In this document: piece after piece, positions 32,537 through 64,000 of the stretch
Layout of the letters: each line of letters starts with the position of its first letter
Position numbering within the stretch: position 1 is the first letter of the stretch
DNA from: an uncultured delta proteobacterium
GTDB taxonomy: Bacteria; Myxococcota_A; Polyangia; Polyangiales; Polyangiaceae
Direction of reading: 5' to 3'
DNA: 64,000 bases
Assembly: GCA_963841435.1 (NCBI GenBank)
Contig: CAWJCS010000006.1
Span: forward strand, 1,632,001 to 1,696,000
Made by a program: the position numbers and the translations under genes
The notes under the pieces: generated by a model
Database searches by the model: none
Told to the model about the DNA's origin: nothing
Seen by the model: the letters and a program-made list of their open reading frames with translations, nothing else

Positions 32537-34522
32537 ATGCGTAGGATCCTCTTCTCCGGCCTCTTGCTGCTTCTACCCAACGTTGCCCATGCCCAGGCGC
32601 AGGGCCCCGAACCGGCGAAGCCTACCGAACCGGCGACGCCAAGCCCGGCTCCCGCGGAGCCTGCCCCCGCGGCGCCGGCCTCACCGCCTTCGGAAGCGCC
32701 ACCTTCCGAGACGGCCGAGCCGGGCCCTGCTCTCGCGACCTCCTCCACCGCCGCCGGCGCCGAGCTCACGGCCGCGGGTCCCACCGCCGCAGCAACGTCC
32801 GACGGCGCGGCGACCGCCGAAGCGCCGAAGGACGCTCCGCCACCGCAGGTCGCTCGTCGAGGACAGGAGAGCGAAGACGAAGGCGCCTGGAAGTTCGACT
32901 ACCACGGCTACCTCCGCGCCCCGATGCGCCTGGGCATCAACAAGCGGCTGGCCGAGGACACGAACGGCTTCGGTGTCGCCGGCCGCAGCCCGACGACCTT
33001 CCACGAGGCCGTGATCCCCGATGACCAGTATCTGAGCTTTCAGTCCACGGCGCACAACATGCGCACGTGGGCCGAAGGCTTCTTCAGCTTCGGCAACAAC
33101 TGGGCGACGGGCGTGCTCGGCTTCGGCTCGTACAATCTCACCGAGGCGAGCTTCAGCTACACCGAGGCCCAGTGGGGCATCTCGCAGGCGTACGTGCTGC
33201 TCACTCCCGATCTCGGCTACGAGAACGTGCGCATCTGGGCGAAAGCCGGCGCCATCGTGGATCGCTACGGCATGTCGGGTCGCTACGACGCGGGCGAGTA
33301 CGACATGTACATGTTCGGCCGCACGCACGTCATGGGCGAGACGTTTCACGTCGACTACGACATCACGCCCGCCTGGACACTCTATCTCGAGCAAGGCTTC
33401 GGCACGAAAGAGCCGGATCCGAACCCGTACAACAACGCCCACTACACGCTGCTCCATCACGAGCACGTGGGCTTGAAGCAGGGCAAGGACCTCGAGTTCG
33501 GAGCCCACTACCTGATGAGCTGGAGTCAGGAAGAGTTCCGAAATACGGGCGACGCCAATTCCGTTTCTACGGGTGCGAAGGCAGCGCCACGCAACGGCTT
33601 GCCCAATGGCAAACTGTGGGTCACGGGCGTCGAGGCACGCGCCGAGCTGGGCGCGTTCGGCTACATCTACGGCGCCTACTCGCACGTCGGGTCCGACTAC
33701 GCGCTCAACGTCTCGCGGGCCATCGAGGTGCTCCACGCTTCAGGCGGCGGAGAGTTCGAGCTCGGTGTCGCCGCGAACTACCTCGACAGCCCGAACTGCC
33801 TGTCGACGCCACCCTCCGTGGTGCAACCAGTCCCCGCCGGCGCTCCTCAGAACTGGCAGCCGCTCGACATGAACGGCTGCAGCGACGGCAATGGCTCGAT
33901 CAACGCCCTCCACGCCCACTACGAGTTTAGTCTCACGAACTTCCAGCAGCAGTTCTCGGGCGGGCAGCGCTTCTGGGGTCGGGGCTTCGACGCGATCCTC
34001 AAGCTTTACGGCCTTCTGGCGTTCGTCAACAGCGAGTCGCGTGACACGACGAAGGTCTCGCGCAAGAGCGGCATGCTCGCGGATGCGCCCCAGGGTTACA
34101 AGGTGACGAAGTCGAAGTTCGGCGCCGACGTGACCGTCCAGGTGTTCCCGTGGCTCTCGCCCGGCGTGCGCTTCGACCGCGTCGTGCCGAACAGCCACAT
34201 TCCCGAGCAGTCGTTTGCGATCCTGTCGCCGCGGCTCCAGTTCAAGTCGCAGTGGGTGACGCACGAACGCATCACGCTCGGCTACTCGCACTACTTTTAC
34301 GATCAGCGTGTGTGCGACCCGCTCCAGCTCCCCGCCGCCGGCGGCGGCACCATGCCGAACCCCGACCCACTGTCGCAGTACCGCTGCACGCAGCCACCTC
34401 CCTCGCCCGTGCCGTTCGACGGCTTCGGGACCAACACGACTGACCAGGATGGCGAGCGCGCCACGAGCGTCAAGCGTCCCGACGAGAACGTCGTGAAGAT
34501 TGAAGCCACGATGTGGTGGTGA
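32537..34522 (+). CDS. Putative outer-membrane carbohydrate porin, divergent LamB-like (paralog 1)
   Basis: Signal peptide (VAHA-Q), Pro/Ala linker, WKFDYHGYLRAP, alternating aromatic strands, C-terminal IEATMWW. Confidence 0.65.
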   Translation: MRRILFSGLLLLLPNVAHAQAQGPEPAKPTEPATPSPAPAEPAPAAPASPPSEAPPSETAEPGPALATSSTAAGAELTAAGPTAAATSDGAATAEAPKDAPPPQVARRGQESEDEGAWKFDYHGYLRAPMRLGINKRLAEDTNGFGVAGRSPTTFHEAVIPDDQYLSFQSTAHNMRTWAEGFFSFGNNWATGVLGFGSYNLTEASFSYTEAQWGISQAYVLLTPDLGYENVRIWAKAGAIVDRYGMSGRYDAGEYDMYMFGRTHVMGETFHVDYDITPAWTLYLEQGFGTKEPDPNPYNNAHYTLLHHEHVGLKQGKDLEFGAHYLMSWSQEEFRNTGDANSVSTGAKAAPRNGLPNGKLWVTGVEARAELGAFGYIYGAYSHVGSDYALNVSRAIEVLHASGGGEFELGVAANYLDSPNCLSTPPSVVQPVPAGAPQNWQPLDMNGCSDGNGSINALHAHYEFSLTNFQQQFSGGQRFWGRGFDAILKLYGLLAFVNSESRDTTKVSRKSGMLADAPQGYKVTKSKFGADVTVQVFPWLSPGVRFDRVVPNSHIPEQSFAILSPRLQFKSQWVTHERITLGYSHYFYDQRVCDPLQLPAAGGGTMPNPDPLSQYRCTQPPPSPVPFDGFGTNTTDQDGERATSVKRPDENVVKIEATMWW

Positions 34523-34871
34523 GCCGGGCGGGGTGCTCCGCTCCGCCGGACCCGCCCCACCTCGCTCCGTTGCTCCCCGTGCGGGGGTCAGCGCCCGCCG
34601 GCGGCCCCTCGTGGTGCCGAGCGGTGCCCCGCCGCGCGGGCCCCGGTTGCCGCCCGCGGGCCTGCCAGCCATCCGCGCACGGAGCGGCCCCGCGGCTCGC
34701 GGCGCCCATCCACTCTCACGCCACGCGAGATGCCTGCGGCCTCGCACCGGTGCCACGGGACGATTCTCGCTGCGAGCCTCCGTCAACCCTGCCGCTGCTG
34801 GCGGGAATCTCCACCGCGCGTAAAATATGCTTCGCGGAGGTTGCCAGTCGGCCTCTTGGGATCTAGTGATC

Positions 34872-34885
34872 CGGAACCGGTTCCA
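34872..34885. promoter_or_regulatory. LacI-type operator candidate CGGAACCGGTTCCA overlapping the GH9 start
   Basis: Perfect 12-bp palindrome GGAACCGGTTCC immediately before ATG 34885. Confidence 0.7.
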
Positions 34886-36582
34886 TGTTGCGCCCTTTCC
34901 TTGCCGCGTCCGCCGTCTTGCTCTTCGCCTGTGATACCGCCGACACGCGTTGTCCAACGGGCGTGAACCCCGACGGCTCCTGCAAGATCACCGGCACGAA
35001 CGCCGTCACGATCCGCACGACGACCGTCGGCTTTTTGCCCGACGCCGGCAAGCGAGCAAGCTACGTCGGCGACAACCTCGATTTTCTCGTGGTGCGCTCC
35101 GGCGACAAATCCGTCGCGTTCCAGGGCACGGCGGGGCCCGAGGTCGACGCGAGCGACACGGGCGAGACGCTCCACGTCGCCGACTTCAGCGACCTCACGC
35201 AGCCTGGCTCGTATTTCGTCGCCGTTGACGGCGTAGGGCGCTCGCCGACGTTCACGATCGCAAGCGACGTGTTCGTCGAGCCGTTCCGCGCCGCCATGCT
35301 CGGCTTCTACGGTTTCCGCTGCGGCTCGGCGGTCTCGCTCGAGTGGGAAGGCGTGCACTTCAGCCACGCCGAGTGCCACATGAGCGACGAGGCGCCGGGC
35401 GGCTGGCACGACGCGGGCGACTACGGGAAATACACGGTCAACGGCAGCTTTTCCCTCGCGATGCTGCTCTTCGCCTGGGACCATTTTCAGGAAAAACTCG
35501 AGCCCCTCACGCTCGACATTCCCGAAAGCGACAACGATCTGCCGGATTTTCTGGACGAATGCCGCTATCAGCTCGAGTGGCTGCTCGCCATGCAGGACTC
35601 CGAGACGGGCGGCGTCTACGATCGCGAGACGAACTTCTGCGAGACGTGCACGTCGCGCAACCAACCGTTCGATCCGCTCACGACCATGCCGGAGCAGACG
35701 ACCGGCGATCGCAAGCTTGCGCCCATCAGCACGCCCGCCACGGCGGACTTCGCGGCGGTCGCTGCACACGCCGCCCGCATCTTCGAGCCCTACGATTCCG
35801 ATTTCGCAAAGCGCGCGGAGGACGCCGCCGTCGCGGCGTGGAGCTACCTGCTCGAGAACCCCGAGCCGCAGGCGCCGACGTCGGCGCAATACACGGGCTC
35901 CTACGTGACGACCGATGCCGACGACCGCCTGTGGGCGGCCGCCGAAATCTGGGACACGACCGGAGACACCGAAGCACTAGCGAGCTTCGAGACCGCCTCG
36001 AAGAATCAGTACATCCGCTCCGACTGGGACTGGAGCGACGTGCAAAATCTCGGCATCTACGCGTACCTCGGCTCCGAGCGCGAGGGCCGCGACGAGGAGC
36101 GTCGCTCGCAGCTCGAGACGGCCTTGATCGCGAGCGCGGCGCAAATGGCGACGACCGCCGACACGCACGGCTACGGCCGTGACATCGGCACCGTGTACTA
36201 CTGGGGTATCAACGGCGTGATCGCGCGCACGCTCATGACCTTCGTGCTCGCCGAGCGCCTGTCGGGCGACACGAAGTACCGCATCCCTGCGGGCTACCAG
36301 CTCGATCACCTCTTCGGCCGCAACTACTACGGTCGCTCGTTCGTGACGGGTGTAGGTCAGGGCGCGCCGCAGTCCCCCCACCACCGCCCCTCCATCGCCG
36401 ACGGCGTCACGCCTCCCTGGCCCGGGCTGCTCGTCGGTGGCCCGTCGGACGCGAGCACGCCGCTCACGGCCACGACCTGGAAGGACGACTTCAACGATTT
36501 TCGCAGCAACGAAGTCGCCATCAACTGGAGTGGGGCCCTCGTGTACGCGCTCGCGGCAGTCCTCCCGGAGGCGACCCCGTGA
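34885..36582 (+). CDS. GH9 endoglucanase lipoprotein with an N-terminal Ig-like module
   Basis: Lipobox LLFAC; ADFSDL..PGSY, GGWHDAGDYGKY, PHHRPS, GLLVGGP, NEVAINW. Confidence 0.93.
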   Translation: MLRPFLAASAVLLFACDTADTRCPTGVNPDGSCKITGTNAVTIRTTTVGFLPDAGKRASYVGDNLDFLVVRSGDKSVAFQGTAGPEVDASDTGETLHVADFSDLTQPGSYFVAVDGVGRSPTFTIASDVFVEPFRAAMLGFYGFRCGSAVSLEWEGVHFSHAECHMSDEAPGGWHDAGDYGKYTVNGSFSLAMLLFAWDHFQEKLEPLTLDIPESDNDLPDFLDECRYQLEWLLAMQDSETGGVYDRETNFCETCTSRNQPFDPLTTMPEQTTGDRKLAPISTPATADFAAVAAHAARIFEPYDSDFAKRAEDAAVAAWSYLLENPEPQAPTSAQYTGSYVTTDADDRLWAAAEIWDTTGDTEALASFETASKNQYIRSDWDWSDVQNLGIYAYLGSEREGRDEERRSQLETALIASAAQMATTADTHGYGRDIGTVYYWGINGVIARTLMTFVLAERLSGDTKYRIPAGYQLDHLFGRNYYGRSFVTGVGQGAPQSPHHRPSIADGVTPPWPGLLVGGPSDASTPLTATTWKDDFNDFRSNEVAINWSGALVYALAAVLPEATP

Positions 36583-36674
36583 CGCCCTGCGTCGGCACGG
36601 CCGACGGGACGGCCGGGGAGCCGGATATCGCCGATTCTCGGCTGATTTCAGCCGGTCCGAAAGGGAGCTCCAGC

Positions 36675-36703
36675 TTGACGATCCCGGGAGCGCCGCGGAT
36701 ACT
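36675..36703 (+). promoter_or_regulatory. Sigma70-like promoter TTGACG-N17-GATACT
   Basis: Canonical 17-bp spacing ~90 bp upstream of ATG 36794. Confidence 0.45.
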
Positions 36704-36793
36704 TCACGGCGTCGCCGGGCACCGAGCCACGGCTCGGCGCTGCTTGCTTTAACTAGCCCAGAACAGGCTCCCGACCCCTGTGAGGTTTCCCCC

Positions 36794-37690
36794 ATGCAGA
36801 GTGTATTGAAGCAATTCCTCCTTTCGTTCTGCGTCGCAACCCTCTCGGTTGCGGCCGGCTGCTCCAGCGACGCAAGCTCCGACGACGACGCGAGCGCCGG
36901 CACCGGCGGCACCGCCGGCACCAGCGCGACCGGCGACGTGCAAGTCATGCCCGACAGCACCGGTTGGGTCGATCGCGAGGCCGCCTGGAACACCATCGGC
37001 ATCCAGGGCGCCTGGTACCCGTACGGCGATCAATATGGCACCGGCCCGAGCGACGCGAAGTGCATCCACATCGGGATGCACTCGCCCACGGAGTGCTCGA
37101 CGATCACGATGCCCGATCCACTCGCCCTGGCCTTTCCCAACGTGAACGGCGACATGTGCACGGCTGGCGAAACGGCGATCATCCTCGACTGCCCCGCGGG
37201 CCTCAACACCTCGGGCTGCCCCATGGACGACTATTCGAACATGTGGGGCGCCGGCATCGGCCTCGACGTCAACGCCGACAAGGGCGAGGATGGCGGTGCG
37301 AAGAACACCTGGGATCCCGCGGCACAGGGCGTGATCGGCATCTCCTTCGAGATCGACAACGTGCCGCTCCCCGGCCTGCGCGTCGAGATCCCCATGCGGC
37401 TCACGGACACGGAAGCCGCGATGGTCAACCTGCCGCCCGGCTCGATCACCGACGATCATCCCGACGGGGCGCCGTACTGGGGCGCCACGAGCTCGTATCC
37501 CGCATCGCCGGTCGCGATGGGCGTGAACCGCGTGCTCTGGACGGACATCAAGCCCCCGCGCACCAACTACGTCTTCGACAAGGCGCGCATGTTGGGCGTG
37601 CAGTTCCACGTGCCCGCCGTCCCCGGGACGAGCACGTCGCGCGGCGCCTACAGCTTTTGCATCAAGAAGCTCACGTTCCTGAAGCAGTAG
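36794..37690 (+). CDS. Lipoprotein with a putative carbohydrate-binding (galactose-binding-like fold) domain
   Basis: Lipobox VAAGC; Gly/Thr linker; GAWYPYGD, WGAGIGLD, GISFEID, GVQFHVP motifs shared with neighbouring lipoproteins. Confidence 0.65.
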   Translation: MQSVLKQFLLSFCVATLSVAAGCSSDASSDDDASAGTGGTAGTSATGDVQVMPDSTGWVDREAAWNTIGIQGAWYPYGDQYGTGPSDAKCIHIGMHSPTECSTITMPDPLALAFPNVNGDMCTAGETAIILDCPAGLNTSGCPMDDYSNMWGAGIGLDVNADKGEDGGAKNTWDPAAQGVIGISFEIDNVPLPGLRVEIPMRLTDTEAAMVNLPPGSITDDHPDGAPYWGATSSYPASPVAMGVNRVLWTDIKPPRTNYVFDKARMLGVQFHVPAVPGTSTSRGAYSFCIKKLTFLKQ

Positions 37691-37792
37691 GCACGCGACC
37701 CGAAAGCGCCTGGCGTCACCGCCGGGCCAGTCAGCGCGGCGGCTCTACCCCGGGGCCGCCGCGCTGCATTTTGTGCGCTCCTCGGTGCTGGG

Positions 37793-39031
37793 TCAGGGCT
37801 TGGTGTAGTCGAGCAGGTTGCCCGACATCATCAGCATGGTGATGGCGCGAAGTGACTGCTGGTAATACTGATTGTTGCCGCCCGTGCCCGTGGCGCCGTA
37901 GGTGAAGGCGTCGTCGAGGAGCTTCTGCGAGCCAGCGGCCATGCCGGCGACCCCGGCGGGGCCGATGAAAGCCATGTTGCCGAAGGTCGACGTCTTCTGC
38001 CCATCGAGCGAGTAGCCGTCACCGATGTTCGCTACGCCCTGGCTGTCGAAGAAGGGCGCGATCAGGTTCAAATACTCGAGCGCGCGCGGCTCGCCGTTGA
38101 AGCAGTAGTCCATGGCGATGCGCCAGGGCGTGCGGCAGGCGTCGTAGCCGTAGCCGCCCATGTGCTGGTAGGTGGTCGTCGTGCTGTCGGGCACGAGGCC
38201 GTAGGTGCCGCTTACGTCCTTGAGAATGGCGTAGTTGCGATCGATGATCGTCGTGCGCCAGGTGCTGTTCCCCGTGACATCGGCAAAGACGCGGAAATAG
38301 GCGGGCGAAAAATAATCCGGGAACGTGCGGTTGCTCCCTTTGCCCCAGTTGTCACCCGGCACGAGCAAGCCGTCAGGGCCGATCTCGTAGGTGTACATGG
38401 CGTTGATGATCTTCTTGGCGTCGTCGAGGTACGTGCCCGACTGCCACTGCGCCGACGCCATGATGAGCGACCACGCCATGTCCTCGTCGGCGTCCGTCGC
38501 CGAGCCCGTGCCATCGCTGGCGATCGATCCGTCGGCGTTCAGGTGCCAGTTCATGAGGCCGAAGCCGTCGAGGTGGGCCTTGGCGAAGGCCCAGACTCCG
38601 TCGAACGTCGGGCGGTCGTTCATGTACACGGCGAGCAGCATGCCGTAGGCGATGCCCTCGGAGACGGTATCGCCGTTGTTCGTGAGCCTGGACACGCGCA
38701 GCGCCGCGCCCGCTGGGACGACGAACTGCCCCTTCCAATAGGTGTACGCCGAGGCGACGGCGGCCGAAGCATTGGCCACGCTCGTGATCCGACACGCGCC
38801 CGGGACCTCGTTCTGCGGAAACGGGTGCGGCCCGCCAGGGATGGGCATGGTCGTCGTCCCCGCGGCGCCGCTCGAGCCCGACGAGCCAGCGCTGCCGCCC
38901 GTCCCGCCGCTGCCGACCGTTCCGGCGCTGGAGCCCCCGCTCGAATCGTCGTCGTCCCCGTGGTGGGTCGGGGCGCTGCAGGCGGAGGCCGCGAGGACAA
39001 GGAGCGAGCAGAGGGTCCCGAACGTTCTCAA
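37793..39031 (-). CDS. GH8 endoglucanase lipoprotein
   Basis: AAAGGAG RBS before TTG; lipobox AASAC; TVSEGIAYGML, SATDADED, PDYFSPAY, YDACRTPWR. Confidence 0.92.
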   Translation of the reverse strand: MRTFGTLCSLLVLAASACSAPTHHGDDDDSSGGSSAGTVGSGGTGGSAGSSGSSGAAGTTTMPIPGGPHPFPQNEVPGACRITSVANASAAVASAYTYWKGQFVVPAGAALRVSRLTNNGDTVSEGIAYGMLLAVYMNDRPTFDGVWAFAKAHLDGFGLMNWHLNADGSIASDGTGSATDADEDMAWSLIMASAQWQSGTYLDDAKKIINAMYTYEIGPDGLLVPGDNWGKGSNRTFPDYFSPAYFRVFADVTGNSTWRTTIIDRNYAILKDVSGTYGLVPDSTTTTYQHMGGYGYDACRTPWRIAMDYCFNGEPRALEYLNLIAPFFDSQGVANIGDGYSLDGQKTSTFGNMAFIGPAGVAGMAAGSQKLLDDAFTYGATGTGGNNQYYQQSLRAITMLMMSGNLLDYTKP

Positions 39032-39197
39032 AGCGAAGTCTCCTTTGACGAAGGTCTCCAAGCGTAGCGCGCGAGTGCCACCACGACCACCCGCCCAGTC
39101 AGCCTCTCGGCCACGTCGCGCGCCGATTGTCACGCGAGGGTCACGACCTCGAGCGGTGCGATCGACTGGTGCTCGAACACTCTCGTCGCGCGGGCGC

Positions 39198-41627
39198 TCA
39201 GGCCTCGCACTCGACCTCGACCGTGCTCCCCGCGGGAGCATACGGCACGAGGTGACCGACGACGGGCTTGCCGTCAACCTTGAGCGCGACCTTGCCGCCG
39301 CGACCCTGGTTCTTGACGCGGATCTTGTAGGTGGCGCCACGGCAGCGCCGCTCGATGGAAAACTCGGCGAGGTCCTTGCCGATGACGGGCTTGACCGACA
39401 GGCCGTCCCACTCTGGCTTCACCCCGAGCAGGTACTGAGAGATGGCAACGAAGTTCCAGGCGGCCGTGCCCGTGAGCCAGGAGTTTTTCGCCTCGCCGTG
39501 GCGCACGGCGTCGCGCCCGGCGATCATCTGCGAGTAAACGTACGGCTCGGTCCGATGGACCTCGCTGATCTCCTCGAGGTATGCGGGCGCGATCTTCTTG
39601 TAGTAGTCGAACGCCTGGTCGCCCCGGCCGATCATCGTCTCCGCGATGATGACCCAGGGGTTGTTGTGGCAGAAAATGCCGGCGTTCTCCTTGTAGCCGG
39701 GCGGGTAGCTCGAGATCTCGCCGAGCTCGAGGTGGTACGTCTGGTAGGCGGGCTGCTGGAGCACGATGCCGTACTTCGTGTCGAGGCGCGCCTTGACCGA
39801 ATCGAGCGCCTTCTCGACGTGCCCGCTCTCGAGCCCGATGCCCGCCATCGAGCAGAAGCCCTGCGGCTCGATGAAGATCTGCCCCTCGGCGCACTCCTTG
39901 CTGCCGACCTTGTTGCCGAAAAAGTCGTACGCCCGCAGGTACCAGTCGCCATCCCAACCGTGAGAAAGCACCGTCTCGCTCATCTTGGCGATGAGCTCCT
40001 TGGCGCGCTTCGCCTCGTCGGTGAGACCGCGCCGTTCGGCGAGCGCCACGTACTCGGGGCCGATGTGCACGAACATGCCGGCGATGAACACCGACTCGGC
40101 CGTGCGGCCCTTCTTGTTCTCGGTGGTCTGATACGGCTCGTCGGGCGTCTCCGAAAAGCAGTTCAGGTTCAAGCAGTCGTTCCAGTCCGCGCGCCCGATG
40201 AGGGGCAGGCCATGCGGGCCGAGGTTCTCCGTGACGTGATAAAATGAGCGCTTGAGGTGCTCGAAGAGCGACGCCTGGTTGTTCTCGTCGTTGTCGAACG
40301 GAACCTGTTCGTCGAGGATCGCGAAGTCACCCGTTTCCTTCACGTAGGCGGCGACGCCGAGGATGAGCCACAGCGGGTCGTCGTTGAAGCCGCTGCCCGC
40401 CTCGTGGTTGCCGCGCTTGGTGAGCGGCTGGTATTGGTGGTACGCGCTGCCGTCGGGAAACTGCGTCGACGCGATGTCGATGATGCGCTCGCGAGCGCGC
40501 TCCGGCACGAGGTGCACGAAGCCCAAAAGGTCCTGGTTCGAGTCGCGAAAGCCCATGCCGCGGCCGATGCCCGACTCGAAGTACGAGGCGCTGCGCGACA
40601 TGTTGAACGTCACCATGCACTGGTACGGGTTCCAGACGTTCACCATGCGGTTGAGCTTGTCGTCGCTCGAGGTCAGCTTGTAGCTCGAGAGCAGGCTGCC
40701 CCAGCGCTCCTTGAGCTTCGCGAACGCCGCGTCGACTTTCTCGGGCGTCGCGAACACCGCCATCAGCGCCTTGGCGCGCTGCTTGTTGATGACGCCGGGC
40801 TTCTCCCACTTGTCGTCCTTCGGGTTCTCGACGTAGCCGAGCAAGAACACGAACGTCTTCGACTCGCCGGGCGCGAGCGTCACGTCGAGCGAGTGCGAAG
40901 CGATCGGCGACCAGCCGCTCGCGACCGAGTTCTTCGACTTTCCCGCCAGCACGACGTCCGGCTCGTGAAAGCCGTTGTAGAGGCCGAGGAACGATTCACG
41001 ATCGGTGTCGAAGCCGAGGATCGGCTGATTCACGTGATAAAACGCGAAGTGATTACGGCGCTCCCTGTACTCGTGCTTGTGGTACACGGTGCTGCCGTCG
41101 ATCTCGACCTCGGCGGTGTTGAGGTTGCGCTGGAAGTTGGTCTGATCGTCCTGCGCGTTCCAGAGGCAGAACTCCAGGAACGAGAACAGCGTGACGCGCC
41201 GCGGGGTGCTGCCTTCGTTCTTGAGCGTGACGCGCTCGACCTCGCAGTCGTGATCGACGGGCACGAACGCGAGCAGCTCCACCGACAGGGCCTTCCGCTT
41301 GCCCGTGATGCGCGTGTAGCCGAGGCCGTGCCGGCACTCGAAGGAATCGAGGGCCGTCTTCGTGGGCGAAAACGTCGGGTTCCACAGCTCGCCGTCGGCT
41401 TCCCGCACGTAGAACATCCGACCGCCCATGTCGGTCGGCACGTTGTTGTAGCGGAAGCGGAGCAGACGCCGGAGGCGCGCGTCGCGATAGAAGCAATAGC
41501 CGCCGCCCTGGTGCGAAATCAGCCCGAAGAAGCGATCCGACCCGAGGTAGTTGATCCAGGGGTAAGGCGTCTTCGGAGTGGTGATGACGTACTCTTTGGC
41601 CGCGTCATCGAAATGACCAAATCGCAT
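39198..41627 (-). CDS. GH94 cellobiose phosphorylase
   Basis: [77 protein letters not shown]. Confidence 0.93.
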
Positions 41628-41704
41628 GGGTTTCCTTCAACCGGCACCCGTTCCGCCGGTTCTCTCGCTCGGGGGGTGTGCCCGCTCGCGCCGATCTCCG
41701 CCGG

Positions 41705-42442
41705 CTACTGGCACCCGGTGAACTGAATGTCGTCCACCCAGATGTCGAAGTCGGCACCCTTCACGTTGACCTGCCACTGGATGCCGTAGAGCTTCGTCGG
41801 GTCGATGCCCGAGTCCTTCGGGCCCCAGTCTTCCTGGTTCATCGACGTGAACGGGATCGTGTACTGAACCCAGTCATTCGTAAACTCGAAGGTCATGCCG
41901 TGGTCGTTGAAGCACTGGTGGCAGATGCCGCCGTCGGGGTCGGTCTGCACGTCGGGCACCTTCATGCGCACCGTGCCGATGGATCCGGGGCCCTTTTTGG
42001 CCCAGAACGAGATGCCCTTGTACTTCGAGGCGTCGTAGGTGCCCTTCGGGTCGACGAAGTTCAAGCCCATGCCGGCATAGACGATGTCGGCGCCGCCGAC
42101 CTTGCCCTTCATGCGCGCTGCGTTGGCCGAGCCATTCGCGCCGCCAGGGCTCATCTCGAATGTGCCGCCGAGCGCACCGGAGAGCGGCCAGATGTCCGAG
42201 CCGCCGTTGTCCTTGGTGTCGAGGAACGTGTACCAGTAGCCGCCGCGCCCTTCGACGAAGTTGGTCTTGTTGGCCGACTCACCGTCGGAGATCATCGCCG
42301 TTTCCTTGGGGCAAGGGCGCCCCTCGGGCAGCTCGCGAGTGGAGGCGGCCGCGGGGTCCACCCTCTTCTTGCAAGCGCCCGTCGTCAGCGAAAGCGCGCA
42401 CAGGCCGCCGAGCACGGTTACCCAAACAATCGATCGAAGCAT
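41705..42442 (-). CDS. CBM11/CIA30-like carbohydrate-binding lipoprotein
   Basis: Lipobox TTGAC; GGYWYTF, YDASKYKGISFWAK, WVQYTIPF, GIQWQV, FDIWVDDIQF. Confidence 0.8.
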   Translation of the reverse strand: MLRSIVWVTVLGGLCALSLTTGACKKRVDPAAASTRELPEGRPCPKETAMISDGESANKTNFVEGRGGYWYTFLDTKDNGGSDIWPLSGALGGTFEMSPGGANGSANAARMKGKVGGADIVYAGMGLNFVDPKGTYDASKYKGISFWAKKGPGSIGTVRMKVPDVQTDPDGGICHQCFNDHGMTFEFTNDWVQYTIPFTSMNQEDWGPKDSGIDPTKLYGIQWQVNVKGADFDIWVDDIQFTGCQ

Positions 42443-42639
42443 TTTCTCACCTTGGGGTTTTCGGGAAGGTCCGCGTGGGCTATGGCCGGTTCGGGCTCGT
42501 TTGATCGGCCGCGTTCCAGCCGTCCGTTCGCACCGGCGCGCCCGGGGGGTCCCACCCGCTCCACGCGCCGATCGGCGCTCTGGGCGTGCAGGCGGGCGGC
42601 ATGTTGCGACCCAAGCCGGAGCTCTGTCAATCGGGAATG

Positions 42640-42653
42640 CGGAACCGGTCCCA
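42640..42653. promoter_or_regulatory. LacI-type operator candidate CGGAACCGGTCCCA between divergent genes
   Basis: Third copy of the motif; a minus-strand TTGACA lies ~10 bp away at 42625-42630. Confidence 0.65.
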
Positions 42654-42770
42654 GGTTGCGGCCGGGGCCCGGGGCAAGGGCGGTCGGCGGGGCGGCTGGG
42701 CCGACCCGCCACGGCGCCGGGGGCTGGCGCGGTTTGGGGGTGCGGCTAGACTCGGGCGCTGAGGCTCAGC

Positions 42771-43793
42771 ATGACTTATCGCTCCCTTCTTTCGGGCTGG
42801 ACCCCCACCCTCACCGTGGTTTCTGGCCTGCTTTACGTCGGCTGCGGCGCAGCCCCCGTGAACACGGGTGACGACGATGCGGCTTCCGGCGCAACCGGAG
42901 GCGCAGGTGGCGTCGGCAATGGTGGGGCCTCGGCCGTCGGGGGGAGCGGCGTGGGCGGCGCAACGGGCGGTGTGGGCGGCGCAACGGGCGGCGCGGGTGG
43001 TGCGACGGGCGGCGTCGGATCGGGTGGCACGGCAGGTGTCATCACGGCTGGCGTCACCAGCAGCTCCGGCGGGACGGTCGCGGCTTCGCTCTGTGGCCAG
43101 CCCACGGGCGTCGCCACCGAGAAGCTCATCGACGATCTGGAAGACGGGGACAACACCGTGGGCAACGGCCTCGGCGACCCGGTGCCCCCTTCGCGCGTCG
43201 GCTACTGGTTCACGTACAACTCGAACGACTCGAGCTGCACGCCGCTCAGCATGGGTGGCAATTGCCCTTGCAAGCAGAGCCCGCCCCCCGACCCCCAGGG
43301 CCTCATCCCCTTCCCCCCGGCGGCGAATCCCGGCAACGGCAGCATGTTCGCCGCGCACACCTCGGGCAGCGCCTGCACGACGTGGGGCGCGGGCCTCGGC
43401 GTCGATTTCAACAATTGCAACACGAAGAGCAACCCGTACAACGTGAGCGCCTACTCGGGCATCGGCTTCTCCTACAAGAGCAACCAGCCCCTGCGCGTGC
43501 TCGTCGGGACTCAGCCGAACCTGCCGACCTCGGAGGGCGGCTCGTGCGGCGGCACCGATTGCTACAACCACCACGGCAAGAACTTCGCGGCGGCGAGCGC
43601 CTGGACGACGGTCACCATCTCGTGGGCCGAGCTCCAGGGCACACAGCAGATCGGCAGCCCGCCCGCGGACCCGCAGACCTACGGCGAAAAGCGTGCGTTC
43701 GACCCGACGAAGGTGCTCAATCTCGAGTTCCAGGTGGACGCGAGCGGCGGCCAGAACTTCGACTTCTGGGTCGATGACGTGACGTTCCTCTGA
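42771..43793 (+). CDS. CBM11-like carbohydrate-binding lipoprotein with a Gly-rich linker
   Basis: Lipobox LYVGC; LIDDLEDG, GYWFTY, WGAGLG, YNVSAYSGIGF, FDPTKVLNLEFQV, FDFWVDDVTF. Confidence 0.78.
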   Translation: MTYRSLLSGWTPTLTVVSGLLYVGCGAAPVNTGDDDAASGATGGAGGVGNGGASAVGGSGVGGATGGVGGATGGAGGATGGVGSGGTAGVITAGVTSSSGGTVAASLCGQPTGVATEKLIDDLEDGDNTVGNGLGDPVPPSRVGYWFTYNSNDSSCTPLSMGGNCPCKQSPPPDPQGLIPFPPAANPGNGSMFAAHTSGSACTTWGAGLGVDFNNCNTKSNPYNVSAYSGIGFSYKSNQPLRVLVGTQPNLPTSEGGSCGGTDCYNHHGKNFAAASAWTTVTISWAELQGTQQIGSPPADPQTYGEKRAFDPTKVLNLEFQVDASGGQNFDFWVDDVTFL

Positions 43794-43826
43794 GCGACGG
43801 CGCGAGAGCCGCCGCCAACCGCGGCG

Positions 43827-44789
43827 TCAGAAGCCGTAGGCGCCGCCAACCGCGAGCGCGAAGCCGATGGCCGTCGCGGGAACCATCGCGAGCACGCGTA
43901 GCTCGCCCGTGATCATCACATTGCCGATGCCGTAGCCGACGCCGCCGCCCGGCGCGACGAACGCCGTGCCCGTCTTGCGCCAGGCGTGCAGCGTCCCCGA
44001 CTGGTGGTCGTCGGCGTGCTGCTTGTCCTTGTAGAACTGGACGGCCACGAGTCCGTCCACCTCACCGAGCCCCAAGCCGAGTGAGGCGAACGGTCGGAGC
44101 CCGGGGTGCGCGAACGGCGCAGCGCCGAAGAAATAGGCTCCGCGAAGCTCCACGTGGAGCGGCAAGGATGCGCCCACGCCCTCCACGGTCGGCGCCTCGC
44201 GAAACGCGTACCCGACGCGCGCGCCGGCCAGCAGCCGGCCGATGAAGAGCCGGTCGTAGCCAACGAGCACCCGCGTCGTCGTGAGCCCGAAGCCGCCCGA
44301 GACCACGTTGCCGGCGCCGGAATAGACGCGGTCCGAGTACAGGCCCTTGTCGTCACGGCAGGTGTACTGCGTCGCGCCGGGGGACTTCTTGCCGTTCTCG
44401 TCGATCGAGGGGCAGACGCCCGGCGTGGACGGGAAAATCAGCGAATCCTGCTGAACGCTCAGGCTCACCCAGTTGAGCTTCGACGGGCCACGCGAACGTG
44501 CCTCGTCATCGGACTCGGAGATGGGCTTTTCCGCCGGCTCTTCCTCCTCGAGCTCGATGACCTCGATCTTCTGCCCCTTGGTGTTGGTCGTGGTCATGAC
44601 GATGTCGTCGGAATCGTGCTCCACGGCAGCGGGCTTGGACTCCTTCGACTTCTTCTTCTTGGTCTTGGCGTTGTGCTGCGAGCTCTGGGCGACAGACTTC
44701 GCGGGGGCGGTCGCCGGCCAGCCGAGAGCCGCGAAGAGCAGGCACGCCGCGCCTTTGCTGCGGGCGGATCGCCAAGGGAAGCGGGCCAT
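43827..44789 (-). CDS. Secreted protein, probable small outer-membrane beta-barrel
   Basis: Signal peptide; amphipathic strands (RVLVGYDR, GARVGYAF, HVELRGAY); C-terminal GGAYGF. Confidence 0.55.
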   Translation of the reverse strand: MARFPWRSARSKGAACLLFAALGWPATAPAKSVAQSSQHNAKTKKKKSKESKPAAVEHDSDDIVMTTTNTKGQKIEVIELEEEEPAEKPISESDDEARSRGPSKLNWVSLSVQQDSLIFPSTPGVCPSIDENGKKSPGATQYTCRDDKGLYSDRVYSGAGNVVSGGFGLTTTRVLVGYDRLFIGRLLAGARVGYAFREAPTVEGVGASLPLHVELRGAYFFGAAPFAHPGLRPFASLGLGLGEVDGLVAVQFYKDKQHADDHQSGTLHAWRKTGTAFVAPGGGVGYGIGNVMITGELRVLAMVPATAIGFALAVGGAYGF

Positions 44790-44893
44790 GGAAAGTCGGG
44801 GGACCATAGCAACGGCTCGCCACGGCCTGCAATCGGGCTCGGGCTCCGATTTTCGGCGCAAGAACTCCTGATTTGAGTCGGGCGACCTTGCAG

Positions 44894-46071
44894 CTAGGTG
44901 TGCTCGTTCGCGCCGGCACATGCCGCGGTAGCGAAAACTTCCACGGATCGGCCGAAGGCGTCTCGCAGCCGTGCGCGCCAGGCGTCGCCGAGCGTGTCGA
45001 TGGCTCGCCCCGCGGCGAGCGCGATCGCGCAGCCACCGAAGCCCCCGCCCGTCATGCGGGCGCCGTACACGCCGGGGATCTCGAGCGCGACCTCGACGGC
45101 GAGGTCGAGCTCGGCGAGCTCACTTCGTAGTCGTCGCGCAACGACGCGTGCGAGGCGCCCATGAGGCTGCCGAGCCGGTCGAGCTCCCCGTGTTCGAGGA
45201 GCTCTGCCGCCATGAGCGTACGCCCGTTCTCGCTGACGACGTGGCGCGCGCGGCGTAGCAGCGTGTCCGGCAGCTCGTGGGCGTAGCGTTCGAAATCAGC
45301 GAGTGAAACGTCGCGCAGCGAGCGCACGCCGGGGATCTTCTTCGCGAAGTGCGCAGCCGCGCGCTCGCACTCTGCGCGGCGCTCGTTGTACGCCGACGTC
45401 GCGAGATCGTGCTTGACCTTGGTGTCGCAGACGACGATGCGCGCGCCGCCGAGGTCGAGTGACACCACGCGCGGCTCGAGCGAGCGGCAGTCGATGAGCA
45501 GCGCGCCCCCGGCGACGCCGAGGGATGCGATTGCCTGATCCATGATGCCGCAGCGCGTGCCCACGTACTCGTGCTCGGCCGCCTGCCCCGCGAGCGCGAG
45601 CGTCATGCGATCGATGGTCTCGTGCCCCGCGAGCGACGCGAGCGCGAGCCCGACGGCGATCTCGAGCGCCGCCGAGGCCGAGAGACCCGCGCCCGGCGGT
45701 ACCTCACTGTCGATGAGCAGGCTCGCGCCACGCACGGGCACACCGCGCGCGATGAGCGCCCTCGCCGTTCCCTCGACGTAGTCGCCCCACGTGCCACGCC
45801 GTGGCACGCCTGGGTCGGCGAGCGTGAATTCGAACGGCTCGGGCTGGCCCGTCGAGACAGCGACGACCCGACCGTCGTCGCGCGGCGCCGCAGCGACACG
45901 CGTGCGCCGATCGATCGCCATGGGCAGCACGAAGCCGTCGTTGTAGTCGGTGTGCTCGCCGATCAGGTTCACGCGCCCGGGCGCGGAGAAGAGCCGCGCC
46001 GACCCGCCGAAACGGCGAGTGAAGGCTTCCGCGAGGCCGGTCAGGGTCGTCACGCGCTCGGCGTCGAGCAT
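44894..46071 (-). CDS. galK: Galactokinase with one apparent frameshift near 45113
   Basis: [44 protein letters not shown]; the shifted frame continues [14 protein letters not shown] to TAG at 44894. Confidence 0.92.
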
Positions 46072-46090
46072 GCCACGCCCGAAGCCCGGG

Positions 46091-47624
46091 TTACCACCAG
46101 AGGCTCGCCGTGAGCGCCAGCATGCTCTTGTCCGGGGCGATGGTCGGGTCGTCGTGCGGGGGGTAGCCGCCGCGCACGACCGTGCGGCTGCCGTAGACGA
46201 ACCGCGTGTACTGGAGCGCGACCTGATCGTGCGCGTTCCATCCCGATCGGAACAGCAGACGCGGCGAGATCTCGAAGAAGGCCGTGTCCGAGTCGTTGAA
46301 CGTCGGGCCAAACCTGATCGGCACGCGCCGAAACGCCGAACCAGGGCAGGATGGCGTAGCTTGCCTCGGCGCCGAGCTTGCGCTTGGTCACGCCGTCGTA
46401 AAGCGCCCGACCCGTTGCAGGGTCAACGGATTTGTCGTGGCTCGAGACGTGGGTCTGCATGCCGAACAGGCTGACGACGATGTCGGGGCCCTCACCCACG
46501 AAGTAGGGACCGTAGAGCAGCCTCGAGATGCTGAGATCGTACTGCGCTCCCAGCGTGAAAAGAGAGCCCGTGGCGGCGCTCTTCGGCCCGAAATACTGGT
46601 CCATGAGCCCGACGCCGCTGTCGACGTTCAGGACCTCGATGATGCGGCCGAGCGAGCGCGCGTAGTCGGCGCCGTGGTGCACGGCGCCGAAGTAGAAATG
46701 CCCGAAGCGGCTCAGCGTGAGCCCCAGATCGGCGCCCAGGATGGTGACGCGCCCGTCGGGTTGGTCGTTCTGGCTCGCGCGGTCGTCCTGCGTAAACGCC
46801 GACAGGTAGTGCAAGCCGAGCACGCCCATGCCGCCGTAGCCGATGCCGACGTGCTCACCGAACACCCAGCCCGCGCCGGTGCGCGAATCGGCAAAGTCGT
46901 TCGAATAGTCGGGGGTGATGCCGTTCCATGGCTTGTCGGCCTGCCCCTGGATCTCCTGCGCAAGCAACAGGGAAAAGTCGCCGAAGGAGAAGCCGGCGTT
47001 GACGGCCTCGCCGATGCCGTTCGTGCGCACGATGATGGGCGTCGCGTAGCGTCCCTCGTCCCACTCTCCCATGCTGCCGTAGCGCTGGGAAAACGCGCCA
47101 ATCGTCACGGAAAACCGAGCATTCTTCAGGAGGTCGGAGAGCTCGAAGTCGAGGTACGCGTCCTCGATGCCGGGGTTCTTCGGCGGATCGAAGAACGACG
47201 CGGCCGTGCGCGGCTGGCGCGAAACGACGGAGATGTTGCCCGTGACGATGGGGTTGCCGTACGTGAAGCGCAAATCGACGTAGGGCTGAGGAACCGTGCC
47301 CGTGTAGTTGAAGCTGTCGGTGTAGTCGGGAACGACGGGCGGAGCGTGCAACGTCGACTTCTGCTGCTTGGCCGCGACCGTGGTGCGCTCGCCGAAGCCG
47401 GCGCGGAGCGGCATCATCATCATGCCGTGGAAGTCGAAGCGCCAATCGCTCTCGTCCTTCGCCGCGTGATGGTACGCGGGGGCAATGCCGCCGGGCACCG
47501 GGCCCGCTTGCGGGGCGCTCGGGGAAAGCCCCAAGACGGGCGGCGACGCGCTCTCCTCGGCCAAAGCCGGCAGCGCGAGGCTCACCGAACAGCCGAGAAT
47601 GGCGAATTTGAGGCCAGCGTTCAT
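46091..47624 (-). CDS. Putative outer-membrane carbohydrate porin, divergent LamB-like (paralog 2); frameshift near 46310
   Basis: Signal peptide (PALA-E), WRFDFHG, strong similarity to paralog 1; C-terminal TASLWW lies in small ORF 46091-46324. Confidence 0.65.
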
Positions 47625-47662
47625 GAGGAACCTCTTTTTTCGTTCGCGGCACACATCGTTTC

Positions 47663-49646
47663 TCACCACCACATCCCGAAGCCTGCGCTCACGACGTCGC
47701 TGTCGAGCTTCTCGACGGGCGGGGCGTTGAAGCTCACGGGTGGCTCCGAGCCGTAAATCCACTTGTTGTACTGCAGCGACACGGTCTCGCGGCTGCTCCA
47801 CGTGGTCCGAAAGACCGCCCGCGTCATGAGCGCCGTGTAGGCCTTGTTCGGGCGGTCGAGCTCGGGGCTCACCCGGTCGGCGCGGAACTCCGCCGCGAAC
47901 CAGGGGAACAGACTCGCGAAGACATTGAAGCCCGCGCGAACCATCGACCAACCGTTGCGCAGCGGGTCGTGGCTCTTGATGCGGCCGTACTGCACGCCGA
48001 GCGCCGTGGTGACGTTTCGGCCTTCGCCCCAGAACGGGTCGGGCGAGCGCCAGAGCGTGCCCCAGCTGAGCTCGGTCTCGGCGGAGGCACTCCACATGCT
48101 GCCCGCCCAGTTGTTGTCACTATCGAACGAGCGCGGGCCGATCCAGGTATTGGAGAACGTCTCGCCGTCGCCGACGTACGAGATGGCGAGGCCGTGCAGC
48201 GCGTAGGCGTTCTTGGCGCGGCCGTACAGGACGCCCGCACCGCCTTGGTACCAGTTGCCTTTGAAGCCGAACGTCGCGCCGTAGGCGTCGTAGCGGCCGT
48301 CGTTGCGACGGCGACTCTCGTCGATGCCCGGTGTTTCCGGGCGCGGATCGGGGTTGTAGTTGCTGCGGCTCTGACCCTCGAGCGGCGGCTCGGCGGGCGG
48401 CAGGTAGCCGCGCTCGTCGTGGCTGAAGTTGTTCAGCCAGTGAAGCTGCGCGCGGAGCGACACATCGCCGTTGCGGATGAGCCCGAGGTGCGCGTGGTGA
48501 ATCCATGCTGCCGGGTCGTACGAATCGCCGAAGTTGTTCGGCGCGACCGTGTCGCCTTGCGGCGAATCCTCGGGCAATATCGGGTGGTTCTGCCCGCCCG
48601 GCGCCTTGTCGCCGCTCGAGTGAACGCCATGGTCGAGCGTCACGACCCACGTGTCGGAGATTGCGTACTCGGCCGACGTCGTCTCGCCGACACCGGCGAC
48701 TCTACCGACGGCGTTGCTGTAGAAGCCGCCGCCGTAGTTGCCGAGGTTGCCGTACGTCACGCTGAACGCGCCGAACGAGAACCCAAGCCGCAGTTTTCCG
48801 ATCTGTGGCAAGCGCGCCGTGATGAAGGCCGAATCGATGAAGTTCTGGCTGCCGAGCTGGAAGAACGAAGCGCCGCGCGTCGGGTTCCAGGTCGTGAGGT
48901 TCATGTGAGCGGTAACGTTGCGGTTGCCGTACTCGAACTTCATCTCGACCCAGCTGCCCTGCGCCCCGCCCGCGCTGAAGCTGCCGCCGGTGTCCACCGT
49001 GTTGCGGAAAATCAGGTCGGACTGGCGCGGCGCCAGCGCGACGTGCGAAAGCTCGCGCGAACGGATCGAGCCGCGCACGCCGGCGGCGAAGAAGCCGGTG
49101 TAATTGAACGTCCAGACGTCGCGCGGCGCCGGCGCGCCGTACGGCACCGTGAGCCCACCCGCGACGGGGCCCGAATGCGGCGCGTAGGAGGGCAGGCCAA
49201 GCGCGGGGTAGCGCCGGTAGCCGGGGACGTAGCCTGGACGGTCGAGCTCGTCGGGAGGCAAAGCGGGCGGGGCCGAGGCGGCAGCGGCGGCTGGCGGTGG
49301 CGCTGCTTCGGGCGGAGCGGGGGGTGATGCCGCAGCGGCGGCGACGGGCGGCGAAGCCGCGGCAGCATCGGCGGAGGCGGGCGCCGCATCGTTGGGTGAC
49401 GCGGGCGCAGCCGCAGGCGCTTCGGCTCCCGGCGGCGTCGGCTGGGGCGCGCCAGGCTCGGCTGCCGCACCCGGAGACGGCGCAGTCGGAGCCGGCGCGG
49501 GTGTCGCGGGCGCGGGGGCTTGCGCGGCGACAGGCACGGCGACCAGAAGCGCCGCGAGCGAGACGAGGCACGCCGGTCCGAGGCCGGAGCAAGACGGTGC
49601 CTTGTCGCCCAGTGACAGCGGCTTCGATCAGCTGGCGTAAGCTCAA
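47663..49646 (-). CDS. Putative outer-membrane carbohydrate porin, divergent LamB-like (paralog 3); start uncertain, likely frameshift in the signal region
   Basis: In-frame hydrophobic LVSLAALLVAVPVAA-Q, Pro/Ala linker, WTFNYTG, FPWFAAEFRADRVSP, C-terminal GFGMWW. Confidence 0.6.
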
Positions 49647-49667
49647 GCGCTGTGCTCCGATTTTCGC

Positions 49668-51185: not shown

Positions 51186-51468
51186 ACGCCGGGCCTTGGG
51201 CCGGCCGCGCCGGCGTCAGCGTACCTACCAGAGCGTTCCGCCAGGCGGCCAGCAAAAATGCGACGAGCAGAGCAAAAATGCTATCTCCGACCCCTCGTGG
51301 CAATTTCCGCCCAGATGGGGATCGGATAGCGCGATGCGTCGAAGCCTCACGCACAGTCGAAGGCGCCCGCGATACCGCGCCGCCCGAGCCACCCATGTCG
51401 GGCGGGTATGATGCGAGGCTCGCAGGCGCACGGTATCGCGACATTCCCCCGAAAGCGAAAGTGAGTCG

Positions 51469-52617
51469 ATGGCAGGCGTCGTTCTGACGGACGTAGTGAA
51501 GATCTTCGACAGCGGCGTCAAAGTCGTCGATCGCTTCAACCTCGAGATCCAAGATCGCGAGTTCGTGGTGCTCGTCGGTCCCTCGGGCTGTGGGAAATCG
51601 ACGACGCTGCGCATGGTGGCGGGGCTCGAGGACATCACGAGCGGCACCATCGCCATCGGGGGCAAGGTCGTGAACGACGTGCCGCCGAAGGATCGCGACA
51701 TCGCCATGGTGTTTCAGAGCTATGCGCTCTACCCGCACATGACGGTGTACGAGAACATGGCGTTCGCGCTCAAGCTCCGGAAGCAGCCGAAGGCCACCAT
51801 CGACGAGAAGGTGCGCCACGCCGCCCAAATCCTCGGCATCGAGGGGCTGCTCGCGCGCAAGCCGAAAGCGCTTTCCGGCGGGCAGCGGCAACGCGTCGCC
51901 GTCGGACGCGCCATCGTGCGCGACCCCAAGTGCTTTCTGTTCGACGAGCCGCTCTCGAACCTCGACGCCAAGCTTCGCGTCGAGATGCGCGCCGAGATCA
52001 AGCACATCCACATGAGCTTGAACGCGACGACGATCTACGTCACGCACGACCAGGAAGAAGCGATGACGCTCGGTGACCGCGTCGTCGTGATGAAGGACGG
52101 CGTCATTCAGCAATGCGCGAACGCGCTCGAGGTCTATCACCATCCCGAGAATCGCTTCGTCGCCGGGTTCCTCGGCAGCCCACCCATGAACTTCTTCACG
52201 GGTCGCATCCTCGGCGACGCTCAGCGGCTCGTCTTCGACGAGGGCACCGGCAAGCTCCCCGTACCCGACTGGGCGAAGAGCGCCCTCGAGCCCTACGTTG
52301 ACAAGGAAGTCGTGCTCGGGGTGCGCCCCGAGGCGCTGTCGGACAAGGGCCACGCCCGCTTCGCCGCGACGGACAACCATTTGACGATGCGCGTCACGCT
52401 CGTGCAGCCCCTCGGCGATCGCATGGACGTGTACCTTTCCACGGATTCCCACCCGCACTCCGTGGCGCAGGTCGCCGCGCACATGGGCCTCAATCCCGGC
52501 ACCACCATGCCGGTCTACTTCGACCCCAGCCGACTGAATTTCTTCGAGCCCGGCGAGATCGGCAAGCGCATCGTCACGAACCCGGCGTCCACCGCCGAGT
52601 CGAGCACCGCTGCCTAG
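51469..52617 (+). CDS. Carbohydrate ABC transporter ATP-binding protein (MsiK/UgpC/MalK family)
   Basis: [55 protein letters not shown]-like tail. Confidence 0.95.

Positions 52618-62339: not shown

Positions 62340-64000
<1,661 letters not shown>

Follow-up and report, generated by a model that had tools for sequence, protein, structure and literature searches.

LamB and ScrY are trimeric 18-strand glycoporins of the sugar porin family PF02264, and a sugar porin encoded in a sugar operon is a textbook arrangement. The OprD/Occ and ChiP channels are substrate-specific as well and are often encoded in catabolic loci. Cellulolytic, litter-degrading myxobacteria (Sorangium, Polyangium relatives) are abundant in soil. 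In the literature searched, we found no description of how oligosaccharides cross the outer membrane in plant-litter-degrading myxobacteria and no report on Myxococcota that deals with LamB-like porins or with glycan loci based on porins; the accessible text of the Myxococcus xanthus paper on porins and lipoproteins (PMC3222651) does not mention LamB, maltoporin or sugar. Here we analyze three genes, termed P1, P2 and P3, in a stretch of 64,000 nucleotides (nt) from an uncultured delta proteobacterium of the Polyangiaceae (GenBank assembly GCA_963841435.1, contig CAWJCS010000006.1, positions 1,632,001 to 1,696,000 of the forward strand). This whole stretch, with a G+C content of about 68%, is referred to as the window. 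It is probable that the three gene products are outer-membrane barrels with the LamB/ScrY fold, which serve as substrate-specific oligosaccharide channels and belong to a mainly Polyangiaceae family. The genes are:

32537-34522, plus strand: P1, a singleton 'S-type' porin of 661 amino acids (aa) (translation, AlphaFold2 model)
47624-46091, minus strand: P2, a 'B-type' porin with start MNAGLKF and end ASLWW (translation, family profile, BLASTP)
49627-47663, minus strand: P3, an 'A-type' porin, stop-to-stop open reading frame (ORF) of 654 aa (translation, AlphaFold2 model)

The pairwise BLASTP matches span nearly the whole domain (P1-P3: E 6e-16, 23% identity over 512 columns; P1-P2: E 8e-33, 25% identity; P3-P2: E 2e-31, 27% identity). 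Hence, the paralogy is real and no chance resemblance, just as a preliminary description, made from the sequence without database searches, had proposed for proteins at these places. The motifs quoted there are found in the translations, namely WKFDYHG/WRFDFHG/WTFNYTG, FSFGN/FTYGN/FEYGN, HHEHVG/GEHVG/HHAHLG, PW....R.D.V and the C-termini ATMWW/ASLWW/GFGMWW; GA..RYG, also quoted for all three, occurs in P1 and P2, but P3 reads GAFSVTYG. The E. coli LamB termini cited for comparison, VDFHGYARSG and QMEIWW, were confirmed on the K-12 lamB gene. In P1, a signal peptide precedes a Pro/Ala-rich linker (about 95 aa) and a barrel domain (about 550 aa) that terminates in MWW, and P3 combines a long Pro/Ala linker with the C-terminus GFGMWW, so that the suggested Pro/Ala-rich N-terminal extensions are indeed present. 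The same holds for the extra Cys pairs of P1 (C310/C337 and C482/C506, barrel numbering), both of which are nearly invariant in a 24-row alignment. Three details had to be corrected. P2 is not one open frame, since a shift by 1 nt puts its ...ASLWW end into a different frame; the TTG at 49646, given as the end of the region with the three genes, is not in frame with the P3 ORF; and the genes do not form one cluster, since P3 and P2 are a tandem pair arranged head to tail and P1 is a singleton 13 kb away.

Between the Pro/Ala linker and strand 1, a Pro-rich motif is conserved in A and B types and not in P1. It reads roughly GY.PGYRR..LG.SP..P...LPGG.TP..GAP in A types (e.g. window 49230-49130, minus strand), and B types have only its C-terminal part (e.g. 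window 47560-47460, minus strand). This motif might serve for anchoring in the periplasm or for docking.

The fold was predicted with AlphaFold2, for P1 from the 24-row alignment, and strands were counted by DSSP. The model of the P1 barrel has 18 long strands (predicted local distance difference test, pLDDT, 70; predicted template-modelling score, pTM, 0.72), and so has that of P3, the paralog most distant from P1 (pLDDT 74). In an exhaustive VIA-align structure search over 48,161 chains, the best match to P1 was maltoporin (1mpr_A, Z 23.9, root-mean-square deviation (rmsd) 4.1, 359/421 residues), followed by ScrY (1a0s_P, Z 21.4, rmsd 3.6, 363/413 residues) and, as the next chain after LamB/ScrY, OccD2 with Z 16.7. 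Foldseek likewise returned LamB, ScrY and LamB as the top three matches (E 2.9e-8 to 2.2e-7). For P3, ScrY (Z 26.4) and maltoporin (Z 25.1) lead over MOMP (21.3) and the Occ channels (about 20). LamB and ScrY thus exceed all other porins by 4-7 Z units in both models; OprB from P. putida (4gf4_A) is well under them with Z 14.4 for P1 and 15.5 for P3, and OprB PF04966 gave no Pfam match in the three proteins. The structural expectation of the preliminary description, an 18-strand barrel with LamB/ScrY as the nearest solved structures, is therefore borne out with a clear margin for P1 and P3, whose models show neither a missing barrel nor a plugged barrel of 22 strands.

A TonB-dependent 22-strand receptor was rejected on account of the 18 strands and the missing plug in the models. 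TonB-dependent and SusC chains reach VIA-align Z values of only 9-14 for the two models (9-12 for P1), there is no Plug or TonB_dep_Rec Pfam match in the three proteins, and neither a TonB box nor a plug domain was seen.

Further likeness to LamB is found at the ends of the barrel. According to the accessible part of PMC3509688, the greasy slide of LamB comprises Y6, Y41, W74, F227, W358 and W420. The terminal motifs common to the family and LamB include Y6 and W420, so that two of these six residues can be placed, and a global hhalign alignment pairs the first-strand FHGY-type motif and the terminal WW with LamB. In a 114-sequence family alignment an aromatic residue equivalent to Y6 is present in 107/112 sequences, the penultimate residue is Trp in 83/112 and the last residue is aromatic in 111/114. 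The loop that follows strand 5, which corresponds in position to the constriction loop of LamB, contains a conserved Tyr-rich motif.

The genome also encodes a genuine LamB homolog (L019:6523-8070, C6:756822-758069), its only PF02264 protein (298 bits vs a cut-off of 25.1). This gene closes an arabinan/arabinose operon with two GH62-like arabinofuranosidases, an FGGY kinase, AraA and a class II aldolase, and its product also has a Pro/Ala-rich N-terminal extension. On present models, we would file the family of P1, P2 and P3 as LamB-fold, not as PF02264.

The family is large. A word-indexed search returned 607 relatives, and among the best 120 of these every named one is a 'hypothetical protein'; an exhaustive profile search gave 762 clusters at 50% identity (E<=1e-3). 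Homologs of the window porins carry Polyangiaceae or Myxococcales names among the matches listed. Of 201 genomes sampled from the phylum, with at most 6 candidates scored per genome, only seven, this one included, match at E<=1e-10. The S-type is the most conserved subfamily, with 47-80% identity across many metagenome-assembled genomes among the matches listed. PF27998, which is precomputed for one homolog, may already cover the family.

The genome encodes twelve paralogs, of which ten are arranged as five tandem pairs; the other two are P1 and its twin, located on contig 3. Four of the tandem pairs, P3-P2 among them, consist of an A type followed downstream by a B type. In a maximum-likelihood (ML) tree, the four upstream members form an 'A' clade (support 84/87), and the four downstream 'B' members are on the other side, together with the singletons. 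A_P3 groups with A_C5 (99/97) and, congruently, B_P2 with B_C5 (94/96), each as sisters, and consequently whole pairs have been duplicated. The fifth pair, from a pectin locus, is its own tandem duplication (100/100).

The A-then-B order was also found in metagenomes. A scan seeded on a narrow B-type alignment yielded 80 loci, mostly relatives of one B subtype and with some near-duplicates among them. In all 68 of the 68 loci with at least 1 kb of upstream sequence, an A-type gene lies directly upstream of B on the same strand, and the gap between the A and B matches is 204-378 nt. Genes for proteins resembling carbohydrate-binding modules (CBM) occur in 55/80 of these loci and in 25 of the 27 that are at least 9 kb long; for relatives of this genome's glycoside hydrolase (GH) and carbohydrate esterase (CE) genes the counts are 27/80 and 18/27. 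In four loci galK follows B, in the same order as in the window.

All five tandem pairs of the genome are located among genes for carbohydrate-active enzymes (CAZymes):

GH94, GH8 and GH9 with galK (the P3-P2 pair of the window)
GH10, GH3 and GH67 with a two-component system (xylan)
flanked by two GH5 genes and a CE2 esterase
pectate lyases, KduI and a major facilitator superfamily transporter
flanked by GH2 and GH44, plus an AraC regulator
C3:448118-450277: for comparison and not a tandem pair, the P1 twin, 80% identical to P1 and without CAZyme neighbours

For P1-type genes, 69 loci from species-representative genomes were compared, and 67 of them gave a tblastn match to P1. The neighbours include GATase (35 loci), GH94 (32), UvrD (28) and GH9 (14). 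Thirty-one loci are well flanked (at least 6 kb on each side) and comprise 20 of a GATase type, 6 of a sigma-54 type, to which the twin belongs, and 5 of neither type. GH94 is present in 18/20 of the well-flanked GATase-type loci, and these have diverged down to about 33% identity. Among six more distant genomes, four have GH95, GH15 or GH13 within a few kb: in one, a CBM-like gene, GH95 and a gene for a BNR/sortilin protein come after an A-B pair, and in three, family members are accompanied by GH15 and/or GH13. At L094:5317-10083 (C25), in a distant genome from this phylum, a GH13 alpha-amylase gene is immediately preceded by a 1589-aa ORF that contains the family domain and represents either a fusion or an incorrectly joined ORF.

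These neighbourhoods, i.e. GH9, GH8 and GH94 near P1, CAZyme loci around each of the tandem pairs, and the recurrent P1-GH94 association, support sugar specificity. The earlier reading of the three proteins as remote sugar-specific porins thus appears well founded, as far as gene context and models go.

Beyond the established paralogy, predicted fold, gene context and linkage of A and B types, we infer transport, its substrates, the oligomeric state and the role of the lipoproteins along the following lines. Surface or secreted glycanases, here GH9 and GH8, would cut plant polysaccharide to oligosaccharides, which would diffuse through the porin into the periplasm; uptake would be passive and substrate-selective. 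An ATP-binding cassette (ABC) system energised by a MalK-type ATPase would then bring the oligosaccharides into the cell, where cytoplasmic GH94 phosphorylase and galactokinase would process the imported sugars. P1 would be the cellodextrin-locus member of the singleton subfamily, and P3 (A) and P2 (B) would be one of several co-inherited pairs, each dedicated to a different glycan locus with CBM11-like lipoproteins.

It is probable that the A and B proteins encoded by a pair act jointly, and they may do so as a hetero-oligomer. A heterotrimer had been suggested for all three window proteins; this is plausible for P3 and P2 and not for the three together, with P1 in a separate singleton subfamily. 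For the intact pair of the xylan locus, a complex prediction (barrels only, with alignments supplied) gave a median score of 0.44 (runs 0.49, 0.44 and 0.26), compared with 0.00 for the best of 3 controls, which were unrelated proteins and not other porins. The runs agree in at least 67% of contacts, and the partner pLDDT is at least 80. The mark applied is reached by 58/80 solved complexes and 2/110 mismatched pairs; scores of <=0.60 at this mark were found for only 7/80 solved complexes and for both passing mismatches. The result points weakly to an A-B contact in this pair, may only reflect likeness to solved porin trimers, and does not separate a hetero- from a homo-oligomer. A more far-reaching version, in which A and B form an obligate hetero-oligomeric channel that docks the CBM11-like lipoproteins, can at present be put forward only tentatively. 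Such a channel would be a TonB-independent counterpart of SusC/SusD, invented in Polyangiaceae and copied for each polysaccharide (xylan; mannan or cellulose; xyloglucan; cellulose or galactan).

The other genes around P1, P2 and P3 in the window are:

34885..36582, plus strand: GH9 endoglucanase with a CelD_N Ig-like domain and a lipoprotein-type signal LLFAC (PF00759 3.6e-75, PF02927 3.7e-13)
36797..37690, plus strand: lipoprotein partner of S-type porins, start MQSVLKQF, lipobox VAAGC (BLASTP)
37793..39340, minus strand: GH8 glycoside hydrolase, start codon uncertain (PF01270 1.1e-50)
39198..41627, minus strand: GH94 cellobiose/cellodextrin phosphorylase, cytoplasmic (PF17167 6.6e-172, PF06165 4e-83)
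41705..42442, minus strand: CBM11-like carbohydrate-binding lipoprotein of 245 aa, mature start C-K-K (homolog names, PF03425)
42771..43793, plus strand: second CBM-like lipoprotein, Gly-rich, 340 aa (BLASTP)
43827..44921, minus strand: small secreted protein with the end AYGF (translation)
45052..46071, minus strand: galactokinase (PF10509 1.6e-24, PF00288 2.1e-16)
49668..51215, minus strand: broken CBM-like lipoprotein gene upstream of P3 (tblastn pieces, ORF fragments)
51469..52617, plus strand: MalK/MsiK-type ABC sugar-transporter ATPase, divergent from the P3 operon (Pfam: ABC_tran 3.8e-31, OB_MalK 7.1e-14, TOBE_2 3.4e-9)

GH8 and GH94 lie on the opposite strand and run toward GH9 and the lipoprotein gene 36797-37690. 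The product of the latter has no Pfam match; it is 70% identical to that of the gene downstream of the P1 twin (L014_10863, BLASTP 1.3e-92), also matches L014_7406 (BLASTP 2.9e-47), and its relatives adjoin P1 orthologs in 12/69 loci. The lipoprotein 41705-42442 has 707 homologs; among the best 120 of these, names include 'carbohydrate binding domain-containing protein' and 'endoglucanase', and three match PF03425 (CBM_11). One paralog of this CBM-like family shows a weak CBM_11 match (E 0.0023), and the ESM Atlas gives CBM30/SGBP-B at 0.91 as a lead only. The second CBM-like lipoprotein, 42771-43793, is related to 41705-42442 (BLASTP 2.8e-13) and to L015_11841 (2.5e-22). Members of this CBM-like lipoprotein family, which end in W-[VI]-D-D-x-x-F, flank the A/B pairs in four of the five loci. 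According to the accessible part of PMC3222651, a lysine at position +2 accompanies inner-membrane retention in 8/12 inner-membrane lipoproteins of M. xanthus; by analogy with this pattern, the C-K-K lipoprotein 41705-42442 might be retained in the inner membrane and face the periplasm, not the cell surface. The small secreted protein 43827-44921, for which there is no Pfam match, is possibly a small outer-membrane barrel. Galactokinase starts 20 nt past the P2 stop and is probably co-transcribed with P3-P2. Elsewhere in the window, a 1058-aa protein with repeated DUF4215 Cys-rich domains (12693-15869, plus strand) is unrelated to the porins; it is followed by two Ser/Thr kinases and then a leucine-rich repeat protein.

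Three consecutive genes of the P3-P2 operon are disrupted in the assembly as it stands. The reading frame of P2 shifts by 1 nt at 46307-46305, a CCC run, and on each side of this point the profile of the family matches a different frame. P3 has no in-frame ATG, GTG or TTG ahead of its signal-like peptide, and its only in-frame start is a GTG at 49537; the defect at the P3 start falls within 49540-49650. The CBM-like gene 49668-51215 shows at least three frame changes with pieces in at least two frames (tblastn pieces in frame -3 at 50913-50662, -1 at 50519-50382, -3 at 49917-49705 and -1 at 49757-49674); its counterpart is an intact 465-aa gene upstream of the A gene of the xylan locus. These defects could mean that the operon is a decaying pseudogene cluster in this strain and that only P1 is functional in the window, which would concern the state of the genes and not the identity of the family. 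However, similar breaks are found at unrelated places of the assembly: the B-type gene of the contig-3 pair also shifts, at GCCCAAG (L016:9400-9990), and part of the gene next to the P1 twin, its partner, is out of frame (L014:10863-11750). Two frame breaks could be located among the five genes with breaks, and both lie at C runs, as expected of long-read consensus errors. Moreover, the window is strongly C-depleted and GT-rich at 59501-60500 and 62501-64000, and the latter segment, in a genome of 68% G+C, closes with homopolymer runs (poly-T and poly-A) longer than 200 nt; these stretches look like an assembly artefact or junk insertion and not like biology. Codon-position GC in P3 is still gene-like, and the B genes of the four metagenome loci with the order B-then-galK each align as one unbroken tblastn piece. 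Because of the breaks elsewhere and the aberrant end of the window, assembly indels are the considerably more likely cause in P2, P3 and the upstream gene, and the position at C runs suggests long-read consensus indels. Decay of the operon is accordingly rather unlikely. A search for sequencing runs returned one soil-metagenome run (0.06 of the sampled words, contigs only) and no usable reads. Programmed frameshifting in P2 was rejected, since other B types read the same motif in one frame and breaks occur elsewhere in the assembly.

Besides the disrupted state of this operon and the restricted sampling and controls given above for the metagenome loci and the complex prediction, several results weigh against the reading of the family as LamB-like, substrate-specific channels. 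P1, the N-terminal part of P2 and P3 have no Pfam match at E<=1, LamB PF02264 included, and NCBIfam/Pfam scans of the three proteins gave nothing beyond a 9-bit low-complexity match to GltJ. A family-profile hmmsearch of the PDB sequences returned 0 matches at E<=10. On the LamB side, a profile was built from the genome's own PF02264 protein, its relatives and E. coli LamB. An hhalign comparison with it at 89.9% probability (E 1.7e-6) was rejected as proof of homology, its Viterbi path running in the columns of the signal peptide and the Pro/Ala linker, which both alignments have in common. With barrel columns only, the local comparison gave P 0.015 (probability 2.9%) and the global one P 8.6e-5 (32%). 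At the level of sequence, homology to LamB is therefore marginal, i.e. plausible and unproven. The models are of moderate confidence with poorly predicted loops. Furthermore, the P1 twin has no CAZyme neighbours, GH94 is found in 0/6 of the well-flanked sigma-54-type loci, where no CAZyme is nearby, and two of the six distant genomes have no CAZyme neighbour. On the evidence of the twin and the sigma-54-type loci, some family members are not tied to glycan use.

Alternatively, the proteins could be general diffusion porins or abundant structural proteins of the Polyangiaceae outer membrane without sugar specificity, their proximity to CAZyme genes being due to co-regulation or chance. The marginal sequence homology to LamB would fit this, as would the fact that the twin belongs to the most conserved subfamily, the S-type, and the fact that the ESM Atlas neighbours of the P1 barrel are only generic clusters ('Porin family protein', BBP2, Porin_O_P). 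But chance or co-regulation would have to account for five different CAZyme loci around five of five tandem pairs and for a GH94 gene that stays beside P1 orthologs in loci of such divergence. Twelve diversified paralogs per genome fit specialisation better than a housekeeping pore, and no general porin approaches LamB and ScrY in the structure search. We therefore consider non-specific porins unlikely and prefer sugar-specific channels for the family as a whole.

Slam translocons and the 18-strand AlgE and Wzi barrels are models for action in the outward direction. That the barrels export or display CBM-like lipoproteins, glycanases or polysaccharide at the surface is very unlikely, since, despite the CBM-like lipoprotein genes that almost always flank A/B pairs and the appearance of AlgE and Wzi among the structure matches (Z 15.3/14.9 for P1, 18.6/19.4 for P3), these two lie 5-9 Z units under LamB/ScrY, no genes for glycosyltransferases or for the export of polysaccharides were found in the annotated loci, the neighbours are catabolic (hydrolases, phosphorylase, kinases, ABC ATPase), and the lipoprotein 41705-42442 might itself stay in the inner membrane if the pattern in the accessible part of PMC3222651 applies.

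What is new is a distinct family with strict A-then-B pairing and companion CBM-like lipoproteins. Nearly all members among the matches listed are labelled 'hypothetical protein', and the family is a candidate oligosaccharide uptake route in plant-litter-degrading myxobacteria. An A-B porin pair together with a CBM-like lipoprotein is a recognisable marker of polysaccharide-utilisation loci outside Bacteroidota. If paired barrels and glycan-binding lipoproteins do form hetero-oligomers, this would be a new architecture for glycan capture, and the channels might aid the engineering of oligosaccharide uptake.

Compared with LamB and ScrY, the family shares the 18 predicted strands, with Z 21-26, about 350-360 aligned residues and rmsd 3.4-4.1 for P1 and P3, a first-strand motif like FHGY.R, the C-terminal WW and genes embedded in sugar-catabolic loci. 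ScrY has an N-terminal periplasmic extension comparable to that of the family. In contrast to LamB and ScrY, there is no PF02264 match and the barrel-only profile comparison is marginal; the family barrels are 40-130 residues longer with large extra loops, and two Cys pairs are conserved among P1-type members. In E. coli, lamB lies in the order malK-lamB-malM, whereas the family shows fixed A-then-B pairs with CBM-like lipoproteins, and it coexists with a bona fide LamB homolog in the same genome. OprD/Occ, ChiP and Campylobacter MOMP are 18-strand barrels, too, and form the second tier of structure matches (Z 16-21), but they are 4-7 Z units under LamB/ScrY and gave no Pfam match. In the logic of the locus, the new features taken together resemble the utilisation loci of Bacteroidota on a different transporter: as in SusC/SusD systems, genes for outer-membrane transporters, glycan-binding lipoproteins and glycoside hydrolases stand together in each locus, and the loci are multiplied across the genome. 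The lipoproteins, however, are CBM11-like and not SusD-like, and instead of a 22-strand TonB-dependent transporter (Z 10-14 for SusC-type chains) there is a plug-less 18-strand porin pair.

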